Below, one piece after another: positions 9,903 through 63,182 of a stretch of 64,000 nt of DNA (its first letter is position 1; the number at the start of each line of letters is the position of its first letter). The DNA is from Terriglobia bacterium (GTDB taxonomy: Bacteria > Acidobacteriota > Terriglobia > Terriglobales > Acidobacteriaceae): contig CAVOSG010000007.1 in assembly GCA_963698825.1 (NCBI GenBank), positions 150,548 through 214,547 on the forward strand. Reading direction: 5' to 3'. The translations under genes and the position numbers were made by a program. The notes beneath the pieces were generated by a model that searched no databases, was not told the origin of the DNA, and saw nothing but the letters and a program-made list of their open reading frames with translations.

Positions 9903-11150
9903 TTACTCCTGCCTCATGGCTTCCACCGGAACCATCAGCGCCGCTTTTCGCGCCGGATAAATTCCCGCCATGATGCCCGCAATCGCCAGCGAAAAAATTG
10001 CCGCCAGTGCCGACATCGGCACAATCCGCGGCGTATCGAATCCCTGCGGCGAAGGCAATTGTCCCAACAGAGTCATGAATCCGCCCGCAATTAAAAGCCC
10101 GATCCCTCCGCTGAACATCGTCAGAAACATGCCTTCAATAAAGAACTGCGTCAGAATATTGCGATGGGTGGCGCCCAACGCCTTGCGCAGGCCAATCTCC
10201 CGCGTTCGCTCCGTGACCGAAACCAGCATGATGTTGACAATGCCGATCGCTCCCAGCCCCAGCGTCACAAATCCCACGACCCCCAGAAAATAGTCCATGG
10301 CATCAAAAATCTTGCCCACACGCTGCGAGTTCTCAATCGTGTCCCAGTCCTCAAACGCATCTTCCAGCTTGGGATCGAAACCATGGCGGCGGGCGATGAT
10401 CTGATGGACTTCCTCTTTGGATCGCAGGTGCTGGGCTTTATCCAGCGGCCGGTAGTTAATGAACGAGACCGCGTTCTCCGCGTTCTCCTGCTTCAATGGA
10501 AACAGGTCGCGCATGGTTTCGACCGGAACAAAGATGCGCGCGTTCGTGCCGTTGTTGCCGTCCTGTCCCACCTTCGCCAGCACCCCGATCACGTCAAAAC
10601 GAACTCCGTTGAGCAGCAGCGTGGCCCCCACGGCTGGCCGTCCCGGGAACACATTCTTCAGCAGTTCCCACCCCACCACCGCCACCCGGCGATGTTGCGT
10701 GTTGTCGTCCTCATTGAACCAGCGGCCGGTGCCGATGGGCATCGTGCGAATCTGGTTATAGTCCGGAGCCACGCCAAAAACCTGGCCATTGGTGGACCCA
10801 TAGTCGCTGACCGCGCGGATGTCCTCGCGATTGATCACTGGTGAGATCACGCGCAACGTGTGCGCCTCATCACGAATCGCCAGATAGTCGTCGTAGGTGA
10901 AGTGATAGGTCTGCCCGGATTGCTGGTTTCCCGCCACCGCCGGAATCCGCCCCGGGAAAATAAACATGATGTCCTGGCCAAGGGTTGCCAGTTGCTTCAC
11001 CTGGCCGCTGCGGAAACCTTCCCCCAGACCCACCAGAAGCAATAACGAGCCCACGCCCCACGCAATCCCGAACATGGTCAGGAACGAACGCAGCTTGTGC
11101 GCCCACAGGGTGGCCAGCGACTGGCGAACGATATCGAGAAGCGTTCTACA
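9903..11150 (-). CDS. MacB-like ABC transporter permease (FtsX family), intact. N-terminus extends upstream of the first ATG (11075) with no canonical start found.
   Basis: 390-aa ORF with FtsX C-terminal module VSVTERTREIGLRKALGA. The frame remains open upstream (..LLDIVRQSLATLWAHKLRSFLTMFGIAWG) to about 11150. Confidence 0.7.
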   Translation of the reverse strand, partial: CRTLLDIVRQSLATLWAHKLRSFLTMFGIAWGVGSLLLLVGLGEGFRSGQVKQLATLGQDIMFIFPGRIPAVAGNQQSGQTYHFTYDDYLAIRDEAHTLRVISPVINREDIRAVSDYGSTNGQVFGVAPDYNQIRTMPIGTGRWFNEDDNTQHRRVAVVGWELLKNVFPGRPAVGATLLLNGVRFDVIGVLAKVGQDGNNGTNARIFVPVETMRDLFPLKQENAENAVSFINYRPLDKAQHLRSKEEVHQIIARRHGFDPKLEDAFEDWDTIENSQRVGKIFDAMDYFLGVVGFVTLGLGAIGIVNIMLVSVTERTREIGLRKALGATHRNILTQFFIEGMFLTMFSGGIGLLIAGGFMTLLGQLPSPQGFDTPRIVPMSALAAIFSLAIAGIMAGIYPARKAALMVPVEAMRQE

Positions 11151-11420
11151 TGGTCCCCTATGGGGGCGCGGGCGTCCACGCTCGTGCTCTCCTGCACGTC
11201 TTACGCATTTAGCCCCCGGAGAGTTCGCGTCAAGTTCCCTCGATGTTGCTTTTCAATCACTTGGACTGGGTTCAGGGCAAAAGGATAGCCGCTCATCTTT
11301 CAGCCGACCCTCTGTCCGTTTTTTACACTGCTATCCAGACGTTTGTCTTCCCGTCTAAACGCTCGTTCTTTAGCGCAGGTCCGGCTTTCTCAAAAACAAT
11401 TCGAAGCGGAGGGCTGTTCA

Positions 11421-14422: not shown

Positions 14423-14711
14423 AGTTAAACCTGCTCCTGTTGCCCTTTTGGGATATCTCCATTCTCAATGGTGAGAACGGATTAGTAAAGGCACGACGTG
14501 CATGCGTGCGCCCATTCGAGCAACATCCAGCGAGGGTGCCCCGTCCTCGCTTCTCCGTCTTTTGGAGAGACGGGGCGGGGGCTCTCGCTAACCCGTTGCG
14601 CTCCCGCACCAGCGAAGGCGCTCGGCGCCTGCATTCGCCATCACTTTGGTAATGCTTCCTATCGATGTTATTTATGGGCCATTCCGAGGCGCGGGGGAAT
14701 CTAATGGTGTT

Positions 14712-16169: not shown

Positions 16170-16236
16170 CCTGTCATCCTGAGCGCAGTATGCACTTCGC
16201 GAGGCGAAGCAATCCCTCCGCTCAGGATGGCACGGG
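16170..16236. repeat. GTCATCCTGAGCG...CGCTCAGGATGGC hairpin element (copy A of a dispersed repeat family)
   Basis: tGTCATCCTGAGCGcagtatgcaCTTCGCgaggCGAAGcaatccctcCGCTCAGGATGgca. Outer 11-bp stem, inner CTTCGC/GCGAAG stem. Confidence 0.6.
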
Positions 16237-17329: not shown

Positions 17330-17334
17330 GCGGG

Positions 17335-17424
17335 TGTGGCGCGGGCGCCCTCGCCCGCGTTCTTTCCCCCTAAATTAGGCCTGTGGAGCCTCGATCTTTC
17401 ACGCGGGCGAGGGCGCCCGCGCCA
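17335..17424. terminator. Perfect 24-bp GC-rich inverted repeat (GTGGCGCGGGCGCCCTCGCCCGCG) with 42-nt spacer, between convergent htrA and M20 peptidase genes
   Basis: 17335-17358 is the exact reverse complement of 17401-17424. Confidence 0.5.
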
Positions 17425-17435
17425 CACAACCATCT

Positions 17436-18940: not shown

Positions 18941-19229
18941 GGGCGCGAGGATAATCGGAAGGGGGGCGGGGTGTAAAGGGCGGGCGCCGGTGGCGGACAC
19001 AGCAGATTCCTCACCGGCTGAAGCCGGTTCGGAATGACACGGGATGCGGCGCTCATCTCGTTTCCTTCAAGCCGATGATCTTGAAATAACGACGGGTAAG
19101 AAAACTGCCGAGCTTGGCTCGGCTGGGCGGACGAGTGCGTCCGCCCCTACGTGGTTCGTGGTGCGCCGCCGTAGTATCATTGCAAGCTCCGGTACCCTGT
19201 GTTAGCGTCTTGAAACAGCAGAGGTTAGC

Positions 19230-23571: not shown

Positions 23572-23843
23572 CAGCTGTCAGCTATCAGCTATCAGCCTGT
23601 CAGCTCTCAGCTTCTGGCTGCTAGCTTCTGGCTTCTGGCTCCGCCAAAAAAATCTGTCATCCCGACCGGAGCGAAGCGCAGCTACGCGCAGTGGAGGGAC
23701 CTTGTGTTTCGCGCCGAGAGCAGCGGCCTCAGGGTATGCCTCTCCCGAAAGAGCCTAGGTCATCCGCCAAGACACCTGCGCTAACTCATTCATCAGCGTC
23801 CCTTAAGTACTGACAGCTGAGAGCTGACAGCCGAGAGCTCCTC
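23572..23843. repeat. Composite intergenic element between rseP and ispG: heptamer tandem arrays (TCAGCTA/TCAGCTC/TTCTGGC units) in inverted orientation at both ends, flanking a degenerate GTCATCC-family core
   Basis: Left 23572-23641 cagctgtcagctatcagctatcagcctgtcagctctcagcttctggctgctagcttctggcttctggct. Right 23808-23843 tactgacagctgagagctgacagccgagagctcc. Core tGTCATCCcgaccgGAGCGAAGCGcagc at 23654. Confidence 0.55.
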
Positions 23844-23868: not shown

Positions 23869-25106
<1,238 letters not shown>

Positions 25107-25107
<1 letters not shown>

Positions 25108-25145
25108 TGTAGGCGCGAGCGTCCTCGCTCGTGCGGCAGCGCCAC
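25107..25145. repeat. REP sequence copy 1 (gtaatgtaGGCGCGAGCGTCCTCGCTCGTGCGGCAGCG)
   Basis: Imperfect palindrome CGAGCG-TCCT-CGCTCG. Copy 2 is nearly identical in inverted orientation. Confidence 0.65.
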
Positions 25146-25236
25146 GAACCAGTGTGGCGTTTCCCGTTTCGAAACAAATTTCCTACTTTAGCTCAGGCGT
25201 TGGTCTCTCATGTTCGCCGCTTATGGTATTCGTGTC

Positions 25237-25625
25237 GGATGAACCGAGTCTACGAATATCGCCGTCATCTGCCCCACTATCAAGGCGACTACAAAGCCGT
25301 CTTCCTGACATTCTCTACTCACCACCGCTGGATATTGTCCCCAGAAGCTCGCACGTCGGTCCTTGAATCTTGCACCTGGGGAAATGGGACCTACTTCAAC
25401 CTGCATGGAGCTGTCATAATGCCGGATCACGTTCATCTTGTACTGACCCCAGCGCCCGATGGGAACAGCTTTTTTAGCGTGGCGGAAATCATGCAAGGCA
25501 TCAAAGGCGCTTCTGCCCATAAGGTCAACCGCTTGCTGAATCGGAAGGGGCAGGTGTGGCAGCGTGAGTCGTTTGATCGTGTCCTTCGACGCGAGAAAGC
25601 CTTCACGCGAAAGTTGAATACATAG
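25237..25625 (+). CDS. REP-associated tyrosine transposase (RAYT; IS200/IS605 TnpA-like HuH nuclease). Alternative start at 25131.
   Basis: MNRVYEYRRHLPHYQ...VFLTFSTHHR N-terminus and HuH motif IMPDHVHLVLTP, followed by IMQGIKGASAHKVN...QVWQRESFDRVLR. Flanked by inverted REPs. Confidence 0.75.
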
Positions 25626-25737
25626 TCCAAAATCCCGTGCGGGCTGGATTGGTCCGAACCGCGATGGAATATCGTTGGTTGTGGATTGCGAATCTGGCAA
25701 AGAGTGCGTGAGCCGGGCTAAGACTCGACACGTCCGT

Positions 25738-25783
25738 GTCGCTGCCGCACGAGCGAGGACGCTCGCGCCCACATCAACATTAC
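25738..25783. repeat. REP sequence copy 2 (inverted; ...CGCTGCCGCACGAGCGAGGACGCTCGCGCCcacatcaacattac)
   Basis: Reverse complement matches copy 1 over about 35 nt, including the gtaatgt flank. Confidence 0.65.
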
Positions 25784-26794
25784 GCCCGCAGCGGCAGATC
25801 TGGATTCGCACTGTCGTCGTAGATTGGATCTGCGATCTTGCTCAGTTCGGGATAGTGCTTCAGCAGCGGCTCGGGCGCCTTCACACGCTGACCCGTCAGC
25901 ATATTTTTGAACTGTAGCGCGTTGACTCCCGCCTTGCCTTCGAAGTGATTGTTGGTCACGACATAAGTGACCTCGGCCTTGTCCGCGATGCGGACGATTT
26001 TTCTTTCCATCCTGCCAGCTCGGCTTCGTTATAGAGATAGTTATAGCGATCGGCCCCTGTTTCCGCTTCGAACCACTGATCGTAATTTCTGCCATGCAGG
26101 CGCACGTAGCCGACGGGGAAGTTACGTGCTCGGTGGGCGCGAGTGAGCGTCCGATCAGGGGCTGATCGATGTTGCAGAAAGCAACATTTTTCTCCATGAA
26201 GTCGTTGATAGTGTCGGGATTCTCCCAACTGTCGTGACGCACTTCGACGACACGCGGGTATTCAATGAACTGGCGCAGAAGCTTTTCCAGATATTCGCGG
26301 TTGAGCGAAGTATTCTTGAATGAAACTGGAAATTGGATGAGCAGCGCGCCCAGCTTCCCCTCGCCGGCGAGCGCTTCCAGTCCTTCCCGCGCCAGGGCTT
26401 CGTCTTCATCGTTGGGCTTGATCGACGCGGCCGAAGTGGGCTCCATGACCGCCATGGGATTGTGAGTGAAAGAACGATGCAGTTTGGCGGTGAACGTGAA
26501 CTTGGGATTCACCGCTTTGGCGGTGCGAACCCACAGCTTGGCCAGGTGCGGCTTGATGTGTCCGTAGAAAGAAGTGTTGATCTCGACCATGTCGAAGCAG
26601 CGCGCCAGAATCTCCAGCGGGTGCTGTTTGCGGTGCTGCATGCCCGGCGGATAGAAGATGCCGTCCCAGTCCTTGTAAGACCAGCCGGCAGTGCCGACGC
26701 GGATTTGCGAGGATGGATTCAAGAGGACCTTCAAGTTAGATGCCAGCAGACTAGCATATGCGGCGGCACAATCAGGGACGGCCCTGAGGAACAA
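25780..26794 (-). pseudogene. DUF72 (UPF0759) family protein, 2 frameshifts
   Basis: N-terminus IRVGTAGWSYKDWDGIFYP (ORF 25718..26794). Middle VGYVRLHGRNYDQWFEAETGADRYNYLY (ORF 25956..26228). C-terminus AEVTYVVTNNHFEGKAGVNALQF (ORF 25780..26010). Confidence 0.6.
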
Positions 26795-27012
26795 AATGCA
26801 AACGAGACGTTCTGCTACTCATGATGAGATGGGAAGGGCGCGAGTTTACTCGTGCCGCTCAGCTAGCGAAAATTAACCACGCTTTAGCGTCTGAGGTCGG
26901 CTCCTGGGATATCAAAAGACAAACCCCAGGGGCTAAAGCCCTCGCATCTCCACCGTTTGTGGCACGACTGAAGTCGGCCCTCCCACGAGAGCGCAGGCAC
27001 CGACGAAGTGAT

Positions 27013-30974: not shown

Positions 30975-31012
30975 TTATTAGCTATCAGCCGTCAGCTATC
31001 AGCTTTCAGCTC
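30975..31012. repeat. Heptamer tandem array (AGCTATC AGCCGTC AGCTATC AGCTTTC) immediately upstream of the pspA RBS, with no inverted partner
   Basis: ttAGCTATCAGCCGTCAGCTATCAGCTTTCAGCTcgg. Confidence 0.55.
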
Positions 31013-33795: not shown

Positions 33796-33835
33796 ACCGC
33801 TCTTGCCGCGGGAGCACGAGCGAGGACGCTCGCGC
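33796..33835. repeat. REP sequence copy 3
   Basis: ccgcgggaGCACGAGCGAGGACGCTCGCGCCtacattgaatc. Same family and orientation as copy 2. Confidence 0.6.
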
Positions 33836-34492
33836 CTACATTGAATCTGCTTCGCCCGACATCTCCGTCCACAGACGCACGTACGCAATGCCTTTCTGAT
33901 AGCGCGTTACTACCACTTCCGTTCCCTTTGGGATCGCGCTTCCATCTTCTCCGCGAGCTCCACACGTCCGCCGCGTCCCGGCTTGCGAATAAATGATTTC
34001 TCCCGTACCGCTCGCGCGAATGGGAACTGAAACTCTGCCCAGCACTCCTGTCATTTCGTAGTCGGCGGGATCCATGATTTCTTCCTGCGAGATCAGCACC
34101 CGGCTAAGAAAAAGAAACACGATGGTGCCGCCGATCAGGCCGCTGCCTATGGCCAGCGAAAGGCCGGTTACGAACCACACCGTGGAGAAGCGTGTGAGCA
34201 GAAAGCCGGTCCCCCCGAACCAGGCGAGAAAGGCCGTCAGAGTGACAAAGTTCAAGGGCGCGATTTGTGTAGTGGGGCCGTGCGCCGGAGCTTGCCCAGC
34301 ACCGGTTGCGCTCGCCGGCCCTGAAGCGACCGGTGGCGCACCGTGTCCGGCAGCAACGTGGGGCGCCGCCACATGCACATGAGAAAAGTGTGGCAGGTGG
34401 AGATGCCAGCGCAGACCTCCAGCGAGAAACGACAGCAGGCTGAAGAAGAATCCCAGCGCGAAACAAATGAGATAGAAATCTGCCCAAGTCAT
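33836..34492 (-). CDS. NfeD-family (short, OB-fold) membrane protein
   Basis: N-terminal TM helices plus C-terminal beta-rich GVLGRVSVPIRASGTGEIIYSQAGTRRTCGARGEDGSAIPKGTEVVVTRYQKGIAYV typical of NfeD/YuaF. Start overlaps the stop of the upstream XRE gene. Confidence 0.6.
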   Translation of the reverse strand: MTWADFYLICFALGFFFSLLSFLAGGLRWHLHLPHFSHVHVAAPHVAAGHGAPPVASGPASATGAGQAPAHGPTTQIAPLNFVTLTAFLAWFGGTGFLLTRFSTVWFVTGLSLAIGSGLIGGTIVFLFLSRVLISQEEIMDPADYEMTGVLGRVSVPIRASGTGEIIYSQAGTRRTCGARGEDGSAIPKGTEVVVTRYQKGIAYVRLWTEMSGEADSM

Positions 34493-35689: not shown

Positions 35690-35725
35690 CTCCGCACGAG
35701 CGGGACGCTCGCGCCCACATGAAAA
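35690..35725. repeat. REP sequence copy 4 (slightly diverged)
   Basis: tctccGCACGAGCGGGACGCTCGCGCCcacatg. Confidence 0.55.
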
Positions 35726-35768
35726 AGGCCTCCGTTTCGGAGGCCTTTCATCTTCTACTTGTGCTGTC

Positions 35769-36374
35769 TTACTGGACGCGCGCGTTGTGCTTCTTGCGAT
35801 AGATGGCGCGCGAGGTACGGTTTTCCTGATGATTGACCTGGCGGCGCTCGGCTGCAGTCAGCTTGCCACCGTTGGCCACGCGATCATTGTGAACTTCCTT
35901 GTTGATCGCCGATTCGCGGCCTTCGAGGTGAGCGGTTTCGCCGGCAGTCAACTGGCCGCTCTTTACACCCTGGGCAATCCGCTCCTGCTGATTGCGCTCG
36001 CGCTGTCCAACTTCGCTCTTGGGATCGACGTTCTGTACGCGGGCGTTGTGCTTGTCCTTGTAGATGTTATTGGAGAGCTTGTTCTGCTGCTGGTTCAGAG
36101 TGGCGCGATCGGCAGCAGTCAGGTGACCGTTGTCCAGTTTGCGCATGTCGTGCTCTTCGTGGTTCAGCTCGGATTCCTTCTTCTCCAGATTCTTGGTCTC
36201 GCCTGCGGTCAGTTCACCGCTCTGGACGCCATTGGCGATGCGATCCTGCTGGTTTTCCTTGCGCTGGTTGATGGTGGCCGGCGCGGCCGCCGGGGCGCTG
36301 CTTTGCGCGGCAGCCGGCAGCATGAAGGCCGCCATGACCGCGGTCAAGATAAGACCTTTGTTTTGTGACTTCAT
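35769..36374 (-). CDS. Secreted tandem-repeat protein with LTAGE/LTAAER motifs (possible LTXXQ / Spy-CpxP-like periplasmic protein)
   Basis: Signal peptide MKSQNKGLILTAVMAAFMLPAAAQ, then two about 75-aa repeats: NQQ(D/E)RIA.GV.SG.LTAGET..LE..ES..N.E.H..R...G.LTAA.R...N.Q.N..S..IY..KHNARVQ. Confidence 0.45.
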   Translation of the reverse strand: MKSQNKGLILTAVMAAFMLPAAAQSSAPAAAPATINQRKENQQDRIANGVQSGELTAGETKNLEKKESELNHEEHDMRKLDNGHLTAADRATLNQQQNKLSNNIYKDKHNARVQNVDPKSEVGQRERNQQERIAQGVKSGQLTAGETAHLEGRESAINKEVHNDRVANGGKLTAAERRQVNHQENRTSRAIYRKKHNARVQ

Positions 36375-36571
36375 ATGGTTCTCCCTGGCTCCCTTGATTC
36401 CCACTGCTTGCCCGTTTTTCGGGTCACATCTTCAAACACAGTGTGTAAAGAAATGTTGCGCCGGAAAAGGGCAATCATCGACAACGCACATCCTAGTAAC
36501 GGTTACCAAAGTCGGTGGCCCGCGGTCTGCGCGGCCTTCAGTATGGAAGGAAATGAGGAAACTGCGTGCGG

Positions 36572-41435: not shown

Positions 41436-41497
41436 AGCTCTCAGCTCTCAGCCATCAGCCCTCAGCTAGGATGTGGACACCGATAGCTGATAGCTTA
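41436..41497. repeat. Heptamer array AGCTCTC AGCTCTC AGCCATC AGCCCTC with short inverted partner gatagctgatagct
   Basis: Seen at 41436-41468 and 41483-41497, immediately 3' of the adaptor gene. Confidence 0.5.
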
Positions 41498-43563: not shown

Positions 43564-43583
43564 GCTCTTAAGAAATCAGGAAC

Positions 43584-43602
43584 CGCGGGCGGGTCGCCCG
43601 CG
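43584..43602. terminator. GC hairpin CGCGGGCG-ggt-CGCCCGCG between convergent genes
   Basis: Perfect 8-bp stem. Confidence 0.4.
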
Positions 43603-43622
43603 ACCACACCACCACGCTTCTA

Positions 43623-43996: not shown

Positions 43997-44344
43997 ATGA
44001 CCGACGACGCCCGCCAGAAAGCCGAAGACCACTACTACGCCGCGCTCGATCTGGTCGCGGAGGGCGAACAGGAGCGTGCTCTGGCGGAGTATCAAAACTC
44101 CCTGGCCGCCGATCCTGATTTTACCGAGGCCATGCACGGCATGGCCCGCACTCTCCAGGATCTCAATCGCCTGGATGAAGCCATCACCGTGGCCAAGCGA
44201 ATCGCCGAACTTGATCCCGACGATGTGCTGGCCCATACCAGCCTGTCCGTTCTCTACCAGAAAAAGGGCATGATTCCGGAAGCCGAAGCCGAAGCCAATA
44301 AGGCTCGTGTGCTGGGGTGGAAGCAGCAATTGAAGAAGACCTAG
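43997..44344 (+). CDS. Tetratricopeptide-repeat protein (115 aa)
   Basis: Three TPR-like units (ALAEYQNSLAADPDF..., AMHGMARTLQDLNRLDEAI, AKRIAELDPDDVLAHTSLSVLYQKKG). Confidence 0.55.
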   Translation: MTDDARQKAEDHYYAALDLVAEGEQERALAEYQNSLAADPDFTEAMHGMARTLQDLNRLDEAITVAKRIAELDPDDVLAHTSLSVLYQKKGMIPEAEAEANKARVLGWKQQLKKT

Positions 44345-44441
44345 CTCTCAGCCGTCAGCTATCAGCTCTCAGTAAAAGCCCGAATAAGTTATCGCCGCGA
44401 TGGTTTGGCTGAAAGCTGAGAGCTGACGGCTGAGAGCTCAG
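44344..44441. terminator. 30-bp heptamer-array inverted repeat (AGCTCTC AGCCGTC AGCTATC AGCTCTC) between convergent TPR gene and pilR; overlaps the pilR stop
   Basis: agctctcagccgtcagctatcagctctcag ...35 nt... ctgaaagctgagagctgacggctgagagctcag. Confidence 0.6.
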
Positions 44442-45826
44442 AGTTCGTACTTCTTCGCCAAATGCCGGAAGGAACGATAGGAAATTTTCAGCACTTCCGC
44501 CGCGCGGGTCTGCACTCCATTGGATTGCGCCAGCGCGGCCAGCAGCAGCGAGCGCTCAATGTCGGCGACGTACTTCTCCATGTCCAGGCCTTCCGGTAAG
44601 ACCGAGCCGGAAGCGATCGAAGGCGCGCCTCCCACGCCGGCCGCCGCAGCCCGCGCTTTGGACCGTTCCGCGGGAAGCTCAACCGTCAGTTCTTCTCCGG
44701 TCTCCAGGGCGACCGCCCGCTCGATGGTATTTTCCAGCTGGCGCACATTGCCCGGCCAGTCGTAGCCGCACAGAGCGTCCAGCGATTGCGCATGCACCCG
44801 CGCGATGGCCTTGCCGGCCGCCGGAGCATATTTCTTGAGGAAGTGGTTCACCAGCAGCGGAATGTCTTCGCGGCGCTCCCGCAACGGCGGAACCGAAACC
44901 GGAATCACGCTCAAGCGGTAATACAAGTCTTCGCGGAAAGTATTTTCGGCCACCTGCTTATCGAGATCGCGGTTGGTGGCGGCGATCACGCGCACATCAA
45001 TGGGAATCTCGGTCGTGCCGCCCACGGGCCGCACGCTGCGCTCCTGCAATACGCGCAGCAGCTTGACCTGCATGGTCAGCGTCATCTCGCTGATTTCGTC
45101 CAGGAAGATGGTTCCCTGGTCGGCCACTTCAAACAAGCCGCGCTTGTTCTGGTTGGCGCCGGTGAAGGCACCCTTCACGTAGCCGAAGAGTTCGCTCTCC
45201 AGCAGGGTTTCGGGAAAGGCCCCGCAGTTGATGGAGACGAACGGCTCGCTGGCGCGGGGCGAACATACATGCACCGCGCGAGCCACGAGCTCCTTGCCGG
45301 TACCGCTCTCGCCGTAGATCAGGATCGTACTTTGCGTGGACGCCACGGTGCGAATGGTCTGTTTCAGCTTTTCCATCGCCGGGCTCGCGCCGACGATGTT
45401 GTCCAGCGAATTGCGGGTTGCGGCATCGCGTTTGAAGGCAAAATTCTGCCGGCTCAGCGTCATCTTCTCCAGGGCGCGATTGATGGCGAGTTTGATCTCG
45501 TCCACCAGCCCGGGGGACTTGCGGATGTAGTCGGTCGCTCCGCCCGCTTTGACCGCTTCGACGGCGGCTTCATAGTCATCGACTGCAGTGATCAGAATGA
45601 CTGCGGAATCGGGCGAGACCTGGTGCGCATAGCGCAGCACTTCGATGCCGTCGGTATTCGGCATCTTGATATCGGTCACGACCACGTCGTAGATCGCGCT
45701 GTCGAGCTTCTTCTTCGCAACCTCGCCGGAGTTGACGGTTTCGACCTTGTGGCCGTCGCGGCGCAGGGCGATATCGAGCATTTCGCAGATGGAGCGCTCG
45801 TCATCGCAAACCAGGATGTTACCCAT
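44438..45826 (-). CDS. pilR: Sigma-54-dependent Fis-family response regulator (NtrC-like; PilR by context)
   Basis: REC (DDERSICEML...D), AAA+ sigma-54 activator (GESGTGKE...GAFTGA...ESELFGY), C-terminal Fis HTH. 462 aa, intact. Follows pilS in a pilB-T-C-S-R block. Confidence 0.8.
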   Translation of the reverse strand: MGNILVCDDERSICEMLDIALRRDGHKVETVNSGEVAKKKLDSAIYDVVVTDIKMPNTDGIEVLRYAHQVSPDSAVILITAVDDYEAAVEAVKAGGATDYIRKSPGLVDEIKLAINRALEKMTLSRQNFAFKRDAATRNSLDNIVGASPAMEKLKQTIRTVASTQSTILIYGESGTGKELVARAVHVCSPRASEPFVSINCGAFPETLLESELFGYVKGAFTGANQNKRGLFEVADQGTIFLDEISEMTLTMQVKLLRVLQERSVRPVGGTTEIPIDVRVIAATNRDLDKQVAENTFREDLYYRLSVIPVSVPPLRERREDIPLLVNHFLKKYAPAAGKAIARVHAQSLDALCGYDWPGNVRQLENTIERAVALETGEELTVELPAERSKARAAAAGVGGAPSIASGSVLPEGLDMEKYVADIERSLLLAALAQSNGVQTRAAEVLKISYRSFRHLAKKYEL

Positions 45827-51836: not shown

Positions 51837-52130
51837 ACTTCGATCTCCTATCTGCGTATCAGATAATTTCGGTCTGCGAATGCGCGCGACTAGAGCTGCT
51901 TTTCGAGGGGAGAAGTTGCAGCCTATCGCGTTGACAGAAATTGTCAACGTAACTGGGTTACGGCACCAGTAACTTTAGTGCGTGGGACTAGTGTGTATCG
52001 TCCGCACGCCAGAGATTGAATGCCCGCAGAAACCGCGCGATTACAGGGGAAAGGCCGCGCCGAACGGACAAAATAAGACGAAGATCCGGCAGCGGAGGTG
52101 AAATGACTTCGGTAACAGGGCGAGGTCGGA

Positions 52131-52380
52131 CGGGTGGCCCACTCAAGCCCGGTTTTGGCTTGAGTGGGGATGTTTACGCGTCGCAAATTTTGGGGACAAA
52201 CTACACGGTCCTCCATGCCGTGAGGCTGAAGCGTTTTCGCAACCATGCGACAGGCTGTGAAGGTGACGGCGAAGGTCGAGTCGGGATAGGCGATACGAAA
52301 ACACGCGAGGCCGGCAGGAAGAATCTGTCCGGCAGTAGAACTCCACTCAAGCCAAAACTGGGCCTGAGTGGGCCACCCGT
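52131..52380. mobile_element. MITE-like element: two about 40-nt palindromic hairpins that are reverse complements of each other, flanking about 170 bp of non-coding sequence
   Basis: 52131-52170 cgggtggCCCACTCAAGCCcggttttGGCTTGAGTGGGgatg. 52341-52379 ctCCACTCAAGCCaaaactGGGCCTGAGTGGgccacccg. No intact ORF inside. Confidence 0.45.
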
Positions 52381-52427
52381 CCTCACCTTTGTCCGCATTA
52401 CTATGAGAGAGTGGAGGCTCTTCCCCA

Positions 52428-62985: not shown

Positions 62986-63182
62986 AGGTTGTCATCCTGA
63001 GCAAGGAGGCCTCTTCGCTGTGCGAAGAGGCAGACGCGCCGAAGGACCCCTATAAGTGAACCGACCTGTCGCTGTTGAGGGTTGCTCGTTCGCCGCCCGG
63101 CACAGTTGCCGCCTATAGGGGTCCTTCGCCTCCGCGGCTGCTTCGCGAAGCGAAGCAGCTACTCCGCTCAGGTTGTCATCCC
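62986..63182. repeat. GTCATCCTGAG-family element, copy C (about 200 bp, highly structured) between convergent amidohydrolase and AAA ATPase genes
   Basis: aggttGTCATCCTGAGC...GCTCAGGttGTCATCC termini. Internal hairpins CCTCTTCGCtgtGCGAAGAGG and CTGCTTCGCGAAGCGAAGCAG. Long-range IR GGACCCCTATA / TATAGGGGTCC. Confidence 0.55.

Follow-up and report, generated by a model that had tools for sequence, protein, structure and literature searches.

Is the small tyrosine transposase gene that lies between ispG and a DUF72 gene in a member of the Terriglobia a mobile insertion sequence, a relic, or the resident transposase of a family of repetitive extragenic palindromes (REPs)? The gene is found in a stretch of 64,000 nucleotides (nt), referred to here as the window, of an assembly from a soil acidobacterium (GenBank GCA_963698825.1, contig CAVOSG010000007.1, positions 150,548 to 214,547 of the forward strand), and all coordinates below are positions within it. 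We conclude that the locus is very probably a REPtron, that is, a single-copy, vertically inherited gene for a REP-associated tyrosine transposase (RAYT) located between ispG and DUF72 and flanked by a pair of its cognate REPs in inverted orientation. A first-pass annotation made from the sequence alone had recognized the architecture of a REP/RAYT system with a RAYT and its cognate REP, and this description holds in terms of protein family (once the reading frame is repaired), predicted fold, the footed hairpins and the way in which REP type follows RAYT clade.

Family membership and predicted fold of the transposase

The open reading frame (ORF) had been placed at 25237-25625 on the basis of its YRRHLPHYQ and HVHLVL motifs. 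Both motifs are present (residues 7-15 and 64-69, the latter within PDHVHLVL), but the start codon is the ATG at 25239. The translated ORF begins MNRVYEYRRHLPHYQ and additionally contains the HUH motif H64-V-H66 and the pair W107-Q108. The profile search of the ORF that had been proposed gave a match to Pfam Y1_Tnp at about 30.5 bits against a cut-off of 23, whether the protein is taken as assembled or after repair of a one-base break in its frame, which is described below. The repaired protein of 157 amino acids (aa) scores 93.6 bits with the NCBIfam model NF047646 (REP_Tyr_transpos, an equivalog model with a cut-off of 80), and only 27.5 bits with the IS200 model, the cut-off of which is 55. 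It has more than 1300 homologs, the best of which are 82% identical, have the same length of 157 aa and come from metagenome-assembled genomes (MAGs) of Terriglobales. These homologs are named 'REP element-mobilizing transposase RayT' or 'REP-associated tyrosine transposase' in the records of the Joint Genome Institute (JGI) and NCBI.

In an alignment of 12 sequences, residues M61, P62, D63, H64, V65, H66, W107, E110, F112, D113, R117, Y128, N132 and P133 are invariant. When 43 sequences are aligned, M61, P62, H66, Y128, N132 and P133 remain so, and D63, H64, V65 and W107 are conserved in at least 90% of the sequences. The tyrosine motif Y-x3-NP is the signature of class 2 (TnpA-REP-like) proteins, as opposed to the Y-x3-Q motif of class 1 and IS200 transposases (PMC6006769). 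The only significant relative of solved structure found by sequence is TnpA-REP of Escherichia coli (4ER8), with a weak phmmer E-value of 2e-4, and the alignment of the two proteins pairs HVH with HMH, WQ with WQ, D113-R114 with E100-H101, R117 with R104, and YIVQNP with YIYINP. The same two substitutions, D for E100 and R for H101, are reported in the REP-associated subclasses 2.5 and 2.7 (PMC6006769). For the comparison of folds we used an AlphaFold model of the ortholog P0001, which is 82% identical to the window protein (predicted local distance difference test score 82, predicted template modelling score 0.79). The top match of this model in the PDB is again 4ER8, chain A (template modelling (TM) score 0.67/0.64, root-mean-square deviation 3.1 A), followed by IS200/IS605 transposases at TM scores of about 0.48.

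REP copies around the gene and elsewhere in the window

The claim that two inverted REPs flank the gene stands, although the right-hand copy, which had been given as 25738-25783, was drawn about 9 nt too long (Table 1). The inverted-repeat arms comprise 43 nt each (25107-25149 and 25732-25774) and are 93% complementary, the two REPs are 598 nt apart, and a 30-nt core, GGCGCGAGCGTCCTCGCTCGTGCGGCAGCG, is the same in both arms. With up to 3 mismatches allowed, this core occurs at 3 sites in the window and at none in 100 dinucleotide-preserving shuffles. A search with blastn-short, combined with a Hamming scan of the window, yielded five copies in total: the two flanking REPs, two dispersed copies and a degenerate one. 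Both dispersed copies had been noticed before, at 33796-33835 and 35690-35725; they exist, but these boundaries needed shifting by as much as 18 nt. A fuzzy regular-expression scan also gave a weak match within a long ORF, at 14599-14634, which we rejected as a chance occurrence or a decayed copy.

When folded as single-stranded DNA, the REP forms a stem of 9 bp (GCGCGAGCG/CGCTCGTGC) with one G-T wobble and a loop of TCCT or TCC; in the left REP the stem pairs 25113-25121 with 25126-25134. The hairpin energy of the four intact copies is -10 to -12 kcal/mol, and in all four an unpaired GTAG or GTGG, contained within an ATGT[A/G]G head, is located directly at the 5' foot of the stem. Counted over all repeat types, the window contains 10 GC-rich hairpins with a GT[AG]G foot, compared with 0.57 +/- 0.83 in shuffled sequence.

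All five copies are intergenic. The four intact ones follow a stop codon at a distance of 0-49 nt and are oriented in the sense of the gene that ends there. The left REP shares its first base with the TAA stop of ispG, and the right REP starts 5 nt beyond the stop codon of DUF72. That the two distal copies sit at gene ends was correctly noted in the first-pass annotation: the stop codon of an NfeD-like gene is the TAG within the GTAG head of the copy at 33814, and the copy at 35692 lies just downstream of a terminator-like hairpin (35722-35750), which follows the gene at 35769-36404. The degenerate copy lies between two divergent genes, just ahead of the one encoding a MacB/FtsX-like permease. 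Since the REPs are placed just past stop codons in the sense orientation, they are probably transcribed into hairpins of the 3' untranslated region (3'-UTR). Stabilization of mRNA by REPs is known elsewhere (PMC6006769), and by analogy such hairpins fit a stabilizing role here. We found no T-tract after the REP stem, so the REPs are not intrinsic terminators. A search of 24500-26500 against Rfam by E-value returned no match, and a promoter and terminator scan of 24900-26000 returned nothing relevant to the RAYT gene or the REPs.

Dispersal and polarity of the REP family in Terriglobia

We scanned 185,579 species-representative genomes for exact occurrences of GGCGCGAGCGNCCTCGCTCGTGC, which provides lower bounds only. 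Matches fall in at least 119 blocks of eight kb, almost all of them from about 50 MAGs of Terriglobia/Terriglobales. Among the matches listed, which include none from the source genome, relatives have at least 7-8 such blocks per MAG, the largest number listed being 8, and the listed loci closest to the window are about 85-88% identical to it. In the 128 exact-core copies among these matches, the 5' flank, which lies outside the search pattern, is conserved as A (80%), T (92%), G (94%), T (89%) and R (94%), recovering the ATGTRG head.

Allowing up to 4 mismatches, we counted 240 REP copies in the listed loci. Of these, 83 are singletons; adjacent copies make up 73 pairs in +/- (heads-outward) orientation and 7 direct pairs, and no -/+ pair occurs. 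The spacers of the heads-outward doublets range from 6 to 240 nt. The family is therefore mainly one of REP doublets (REPINs) of fixed polarity, and the two REPs that bracket the RAYT gene share this polarity. Within these loci, the stop-to-stop ORF covering a position is shorter for REPs than for random positions (median 615 vs 1149 nt, Mann-Whitney p = 1e-17), a test of extragenic location that is crude in a GC-rich genome and the direction of which is as expected.

The identical 23-nt hairpin core, GGCGCGAGCGTCCTCGCTCGTGC, also occurs in four Bacteroidota loci (L026, L061 from an isolate of Pontibacter qinzhouensis, L094 and L113). We excluded these as members of the family; they have a flank of the CCCC..CT type and the ATGTRG head is absent. 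They may represent a different repeat family with the same stem. A fifth outside match, L059, has GTAG directly 5' of the core but a different flank, and we assigned it to no family. By a rough estimate, about 0.07 exact 22-base matches would arise by chance in the whole collection, so that none is expected.

Conservation of the locus and pairing of REP type with RAYT clade

Three related contigs (L001, L121 and L093) have the arrangement of the window, with ispG followed by the RAYT gene and then by an oppositely oriented DUF72 gene, and the same three genes are found together in three others (L122, L126 and the P0047 contig), so that the position between ispG and DUF72 is kept in six related contigs. 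The RAYT proteins of these relatives are 67-82% identical to that of the window. REP flanks were read from DNA in L001, L121, L122 and L126 and by alignment in L093, while for P0047 gene calls only were used; wherever the DNA of a relative was read at this locus, the RAYT gene is bracketed by the same REP with heads outward. An additional REP downstream of the gene in L001 makes up a doublet. Such a conserved position is what one would expect if the gene is domesticated and passed on vertically. The window itself contains one RAYT gene and no second one.

The dispersed copies show turnover: the one at 33814 is present at the orthologous site of L083 and absent from that of L001, and the one at 35692 is also found in L083.

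A second clade of RAYT proteins, about 60% identical to that of the window, is encoded at other conserved loci, past hslV-hslU in L124 and L125 and near a TPR gene in L123. The genes of this clade are flanked by a different REP of the same architecture, ATGGAG-GACGGGCG-TCCT-CGCCCGTC, and in L125 full doublets with GGAG heads are located on either side of the gene. The REP type thus changes with the RAYT clade.

Orientation of the REP-bounded cassette

When L122 is compared with the window, the REP-bounded cassette (25107-25774) aligns in the forward direction (L122 3847-4531) and both flanks align in reverse, with the breakpoints inside the REPs. The same inverted gene order is found in L126 and in the P0047 contig, that is, in three relatives altogether. 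Pairwise identities among the RAYT proteins suggest at least one inversion event. One could suppose that the cassette is an invertible segment, flipped through its REPs by RecA or by the RAYT itself, and that its orientation, which would set whether the RAYT gene receives read-through from ispG or is antisense to it, slowly switches RAYT expression, and with it REP spread, on and off. We regard a switch of this kind as distinctly improbable.

The reading frame of the transposase gene

That the ORF is frameshifted had gone unnoticed in the first-pass annotation: a 1-nt deletion at 25595/25596 puts the YIVQNP motif into another frame. At this site the window reads GCGA-GAAAGC and four orthologs read GCGAGGAGAGC. 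The ORF shares its frame with the orthologs only to about codon 119 and terminates with RREKAFTRKLNT. The catalytic Y128 and N132-P133, which form the class-2 Y-x3-NP motif, are encoded in the frame following the deletion (YIVQNP, 25622-25639). As assembled, no intact frame joins the HUH motif to the catalytic tyrosine, the ORF ending at 25625 without Y128. Programmed ribosomal frameshifting was ruled out, as the four orthologs have a continuous ORF with one base more at the site.

We compared the proteins of the syntenic JGI contig L001 with the window by tblastn, and found at least 14 frame changes across 8 of 16 syntenic genes (window 15300-36100), most of them between 20 and 27 kb. The genes concerned encode an M20 peptidase, CdsA, Dxr (at least 3 changes), IspG (at least 2), the RAYT (1), DUF72 (at least 4), RmuC and flotillin. 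Two of these proteins, Dxr and IspG, are essential enzymes of the methylerythritol phosphate (MEP) pathway. Because these enzymes are essential and their in-frame segments are up to 100% identical to the ortholog protein, we attribute the frame changes in dxr and ispG to sequencing indels and not to decay. The assembly therefore looks indel-rich, and apparent pseudogenes in the window should not be trusted. Another probable indel was observed near 11150, at the start of the permease gene.

The ratio of nonsynonymous to synonymous substitution rates (dN/dS) of the repaired RAYT gene against four orthologs is 0.10-0.15 overall, 0.08-0.16 ahead of the break and 0.13-0.19 over the 38 codons beyond it. 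Since dxr, ispG and DUF72 nearby each have several frame changes, and since dN/dS stays near 0.1 both ahead of the break and beyond it, we consider it probable, with reasonable confidence, that the frameshift is an artefact of the assembly and not a real inactivation.

Competing explanations for the locus

The locus could be a decaying REPtron, in which the frameshift is real, the RAYT gene is a recent pseudogene, and the REPs are immobile relics that are kept, if at all, for functions of their hairpins. The frameshift does take Y128 out of the ORF, one REP copy (11160-11187) is degenerate, and E. coli strains that have lost tnpA-REP and yet retain REPs are documented (PMC3333891). Nevertheless, given the number of frame changes in the window, including those in dxr and ispG, one indel in a gene of 474 nt is what error would lead one to expect. 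The RAYT gene has no further lesion, the codons beyond the break retain the low dN/dS given above, and the 30-nt cores of both flanking REPs are identical. We therefore consider recent decay unlikely. That the REPs are host regulatory hairpins, acting as 3'-UTR stabilizers or terminators and placed next to the RAYT gene by coincidence, would agree with the position of all four intact copies within 49 nt past a stop codon in the sense orientation and with the known stabilization of mRNA by REPs (PMC6006769). Such a coincidence is very improbable, as this REP flanks the RAYT gene in all ispG-locus contigs that were read as DNA, a different REP accompanies the distant clade, the unpaired GT[AG]G head is conserved, the polarity of doublets is strict, and no T-tract follows the stem. 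Moreover, a beneficial role of the RNA is compatible with RAYT-driven spread and hence is not an alternative to it.

A selfish insertion sequence of the IS200/IS605 type, autonomous and moving as a unit, would share with this locus the HUH/Y1 fold, the Pfam Y1_Tnp match and hairpins on either side of the gene, and transposases of such elements are the next-best structural matches to the P0001 model. Other features contradict it. The RAYT motif is Y-x3-NP and not Y-x3-Q (PMC6006769), and the repaired protein scores far higher with the NCBIfam RAYT model than with that for IS200. The window has one copy, at an ispG/DUF72 site shared by six related contigs. The flanks are identical inverted copies rather than distinct left and right ends, there is no adjacent tnpB, the neighbours being ispG and DUF72, and the hairpins are dispersed without the gene. 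We find this explanation barely credible.

Several observations weigh against a functional REPtron and temper our conclusion. The assembled ORF lacks the catalytic tyrosine and falls below the NCBIfam cut-off (56.4 vs 80 bits), and with a single assembly as the basis a genuine recent inactivation of the RAYT is conceivable. No promoter-like site for the gene was found in the scan of 24900-26000. The over-representation of the REP was seen in relatives, the source genome being represented by its 64-kb window, and within the window the copies of this family (designated family A), apart from the pair around the gene, are singletons that form no doublets of the kind known as REPINs or as bacterial interspersed mosaic elements (BIMEs). 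An arrangement in inverted, BIME-like pairs, which had been raised in the first-pass annotation, thus holds for the relatives, with their 73 heads-outward doublets, but not for the family-A copies of the window. The assignment of the RAYT to a subclass is uncertain: pairwise BLASTP identities of 35% to a Pseudomonas group-3 RAYT (core) and 31% to a 'TIRYT' protein of Koribacter versatilis, a group discussed below, are not decisive. Finally, the biochemistry of RAYT proteins is known for E. coli TnpA-REP alone (PMC3333891, PMC3479197).

A REPtron nevertheless remains the reading that we hold to be very probable, and its working can be sketched from the E. coli example. TnpA-REP binds, cleaves and recombines single-stranded DNA of REPs and BIMEs, and the GTAG is required (PMC3333891, PMC3479197). 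From this analogy we infer both catalysis by the RAYT and mobilization of the REPs in the window; the anatomy, family membership, synteny and cognate pairing, and the dispersal, turnover and doublet polarity of the REPs, are shown by the data above. The RAYT would bind the REP hairpin on single-stranded DNA and would read the GT[AG]G at the 5' foot of the stem in a base-specific manner. Tyr128 would then cleave the strand, giving a 5'-phosphotyrosine intermediate, while the histidines of the HUH motif would hold the metal. By rejoining strands the RAYT may cause REPs and REPINs to spread to extragenic sites, mostly just past stop codons, with the RAYT gene itself remaining in place as its REPs spread.

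Comparison with known systems

The REPtron of E. coli K-12 (tnpA-REP, or yafM) shares with this locus a core of HUH and Y-x3-NP motifs, the WQ pair, an equivalent of R104, a fold similar at a TM score of 0.67, GT[AG]G at the 5' foot of the hairpin, and inverted REPs bracketing a gene that holds a conserved position and that, here probably, is single-copy. In contrast, the two proteins are only about 20% identical over the structural alignment, E100 and H101 are D and R here, and the stem lacks the bulge that E. coli TnpA-REP needs for binding. Three BIMEs accompany the E. coli gene, whereas one REP is located on each side here, and the phylum is Acidobacteriota.

The REPIN-RAYT systems of Pseudomonas (Bertels group 3, Quentin subclass 2.5, for instance in P. 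fluorescens SBW25) resemble this one in having short REPs with a GT[AG]G foot, mostly arranged as inverted doublets of fixed polarity, in having one REP type per RAYT clade, and probably in vertical inheritance. The C-terminal motifs are also alike (DR..RREE...Y-I-x-x-NP-[LV]-RAGLV), with 35% identity over the core. The differences, apart from the taxon, are the N-terminus, which is YRRHLPHYQ here, and YIVQNP in place of YI[VI]ANP.

Acidobacteria have previously been described as carrying tyrosine transposases associated with terminal inverted repeats (TIRYTs), which form TIRtrons (Di Nocera et al. 2013: T. saanensis 392, K. versatilis 3477, A. capsulatum 645 and G. mallensis 794). The phylum is the same, and these are likewise Y1 transposase-like genes flanked by inverted repeats. 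However, the identity is 31%, the N-terminus of TIRYTs is MPxGLKRYQ, and they have a WSSF tail. TIRYTs were described without GTAG REPs, whereas the flanking repeats here are GT[AG]G-footed hairpins of a dispersed family. Judged by its sequence, the RAYT clearly does not belong to the TIRYT group of 2013. The IS200/IS605 transposases (TnpA-IS200, as in IS608 and ISDra2) have in common with the RAYT the HUH/Y1 fold, the recognition of hairpins on single-stranded DNA (ssDNA) and a 5' guide tetranucleotide, but differ in their Y-x3-Q motif, in being multicopy, in the asymmetric ends of their elements, which often carry tnpB, and in moving as a unit.

The survey of 2013 reported GTAG REPs in Proteobacteria, Cyanobacteria, Chloroflexi and the Planctomycetes-Verrucomicrobia-Chlamydiae (PVC) group, with Acidobacteria not listed, and classed acidobacterial Y1 genes as flanked by terminal inverted repeats (PMC3733652). 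In a full-text literature search we found no paper joining REP-associated tyrosine transposases with Terriglobia, Terriglobales or Acidobacteriota. As such, REP/RAYT systems, REPtrons and REPINs are well described, and databases already call the homologs RayT; the details that may be new are the lineage and the inversion of the cassette between the REPs.

Other repeats in the window

A second REP-like family has the form GTGTGG-CGCGGGCG-CCCT-CGCCCGCG and is GTGG-footed. Its inverted doublet is located between convergent genes for a protease and an M20 peptidase, and a diverged counterpart is found at the orthologous site of L001. Arrays of the 7-nt unit CAGCTMT, with 4-6 copies each, are intergenic, occur on both strands and constitute a further dispersed repeat family; the two arrays within 44342-44443 form an inverted pair. 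Further inverted repeats are likewise dispersed over intergenic DNA of the window. Each arm of a 40-nt inverted repeat beginning at 52128 contains a hairpin (CCACTCAAGCC...GGCTTGAGTGG), and the segment 52128-52382 could be a small element resembling a miniature inverted-repeat transposable element (MITE). A motif beginning TGTCATCCTGAGCG occurs at two distant sites, 16172-16209 and 62990-63027, the latter copy belonging to a 68-nt imperfect inverted repeat (62987-63054 and 63114-63181).

Table 1. Positions of the RAYT gene, its neighbours, REP copies and other repeats in the window
Feature	Position	Strand	Remarks
ispG (GcpE)	23869-25107	+	spread over three frames by indels; TAA stop 25105-25107
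Left REP	25107-25141	+	ATGTAG head (GTAG 25109-25112), TCCT loop, GGCAGCG tail
RAYT (TnpA-REP) ORF as assembled	25239-25625	+	128 aa and stop; ATG 25239, TAG 25623-25625
RAYT frameshift site	25595/25596	+	1 base fewer than in four orthologs (DNA alignment)
RAYT C-terminal part, next frame	25596-25711	+	ends in SLHAKVEYIVQNPVRAGLVRTAMEYRWLWIANLAKSA and stop; TGA stop 25709-25711
Right REP	25740-25774	-	ATGTGG head; stem and loop same as left REP; inverted to it
DUF72 gene	25780-26972	-	split by at least 4 frame changes
Degenerate REP	11160-11187	+	ATGGGG-GCGCGGGCG-TCCA-CGCTCGTGC; hairpin folding retained
Dispersed REP	33814-33842	-	AATGTAG and hairpin identical to flanking copies
Dispersed REP	35692-35720	-	ATGTGG head; TCC loop, 1 nt shorter
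Second-family doublet	17334-17360 / 17401-17427	inverted	27-nt arms, 100% complementary, 40-nt spacer
Second-family further copy	~43583-43607	-	
Third hairpin type, GTAG-footed	~19125-19150	-	CACGTAG-GGGCGGACG-CACT-CGTCCGCCC; one window copy
CAGCTMT arrays	23572-23612, 23810-23839, 30976-31011, 41436-41467, 44342-44377 / 44404-44443		
40-nt inverted repeat	52128-52167 / 52343-52382		95% complementary, 175 nt between arms

Significance

The finding leaves the understanding of the REP/RAYT mechanism unchanged. It extends canonical REP and REPIN-RAYT systems with GT[AG]G feet to the Terriglobales, prior study having dealt mainly with Proteobacteria and Cyanobacteria. For work on soil acidobacterial MAGs, the REP consensus provides a marker for problems of assembly and annotation that are induced by repeats, and caution is needed before a frameshifted 'pseudogene' in such an assembly is accepted as real. 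In terms of the biology of the family, the conserved synteny, the two RAYT clades with REP types of their own and the strict polarity of the doublets make this lineage of comparative use for the question of how REPINs persist.

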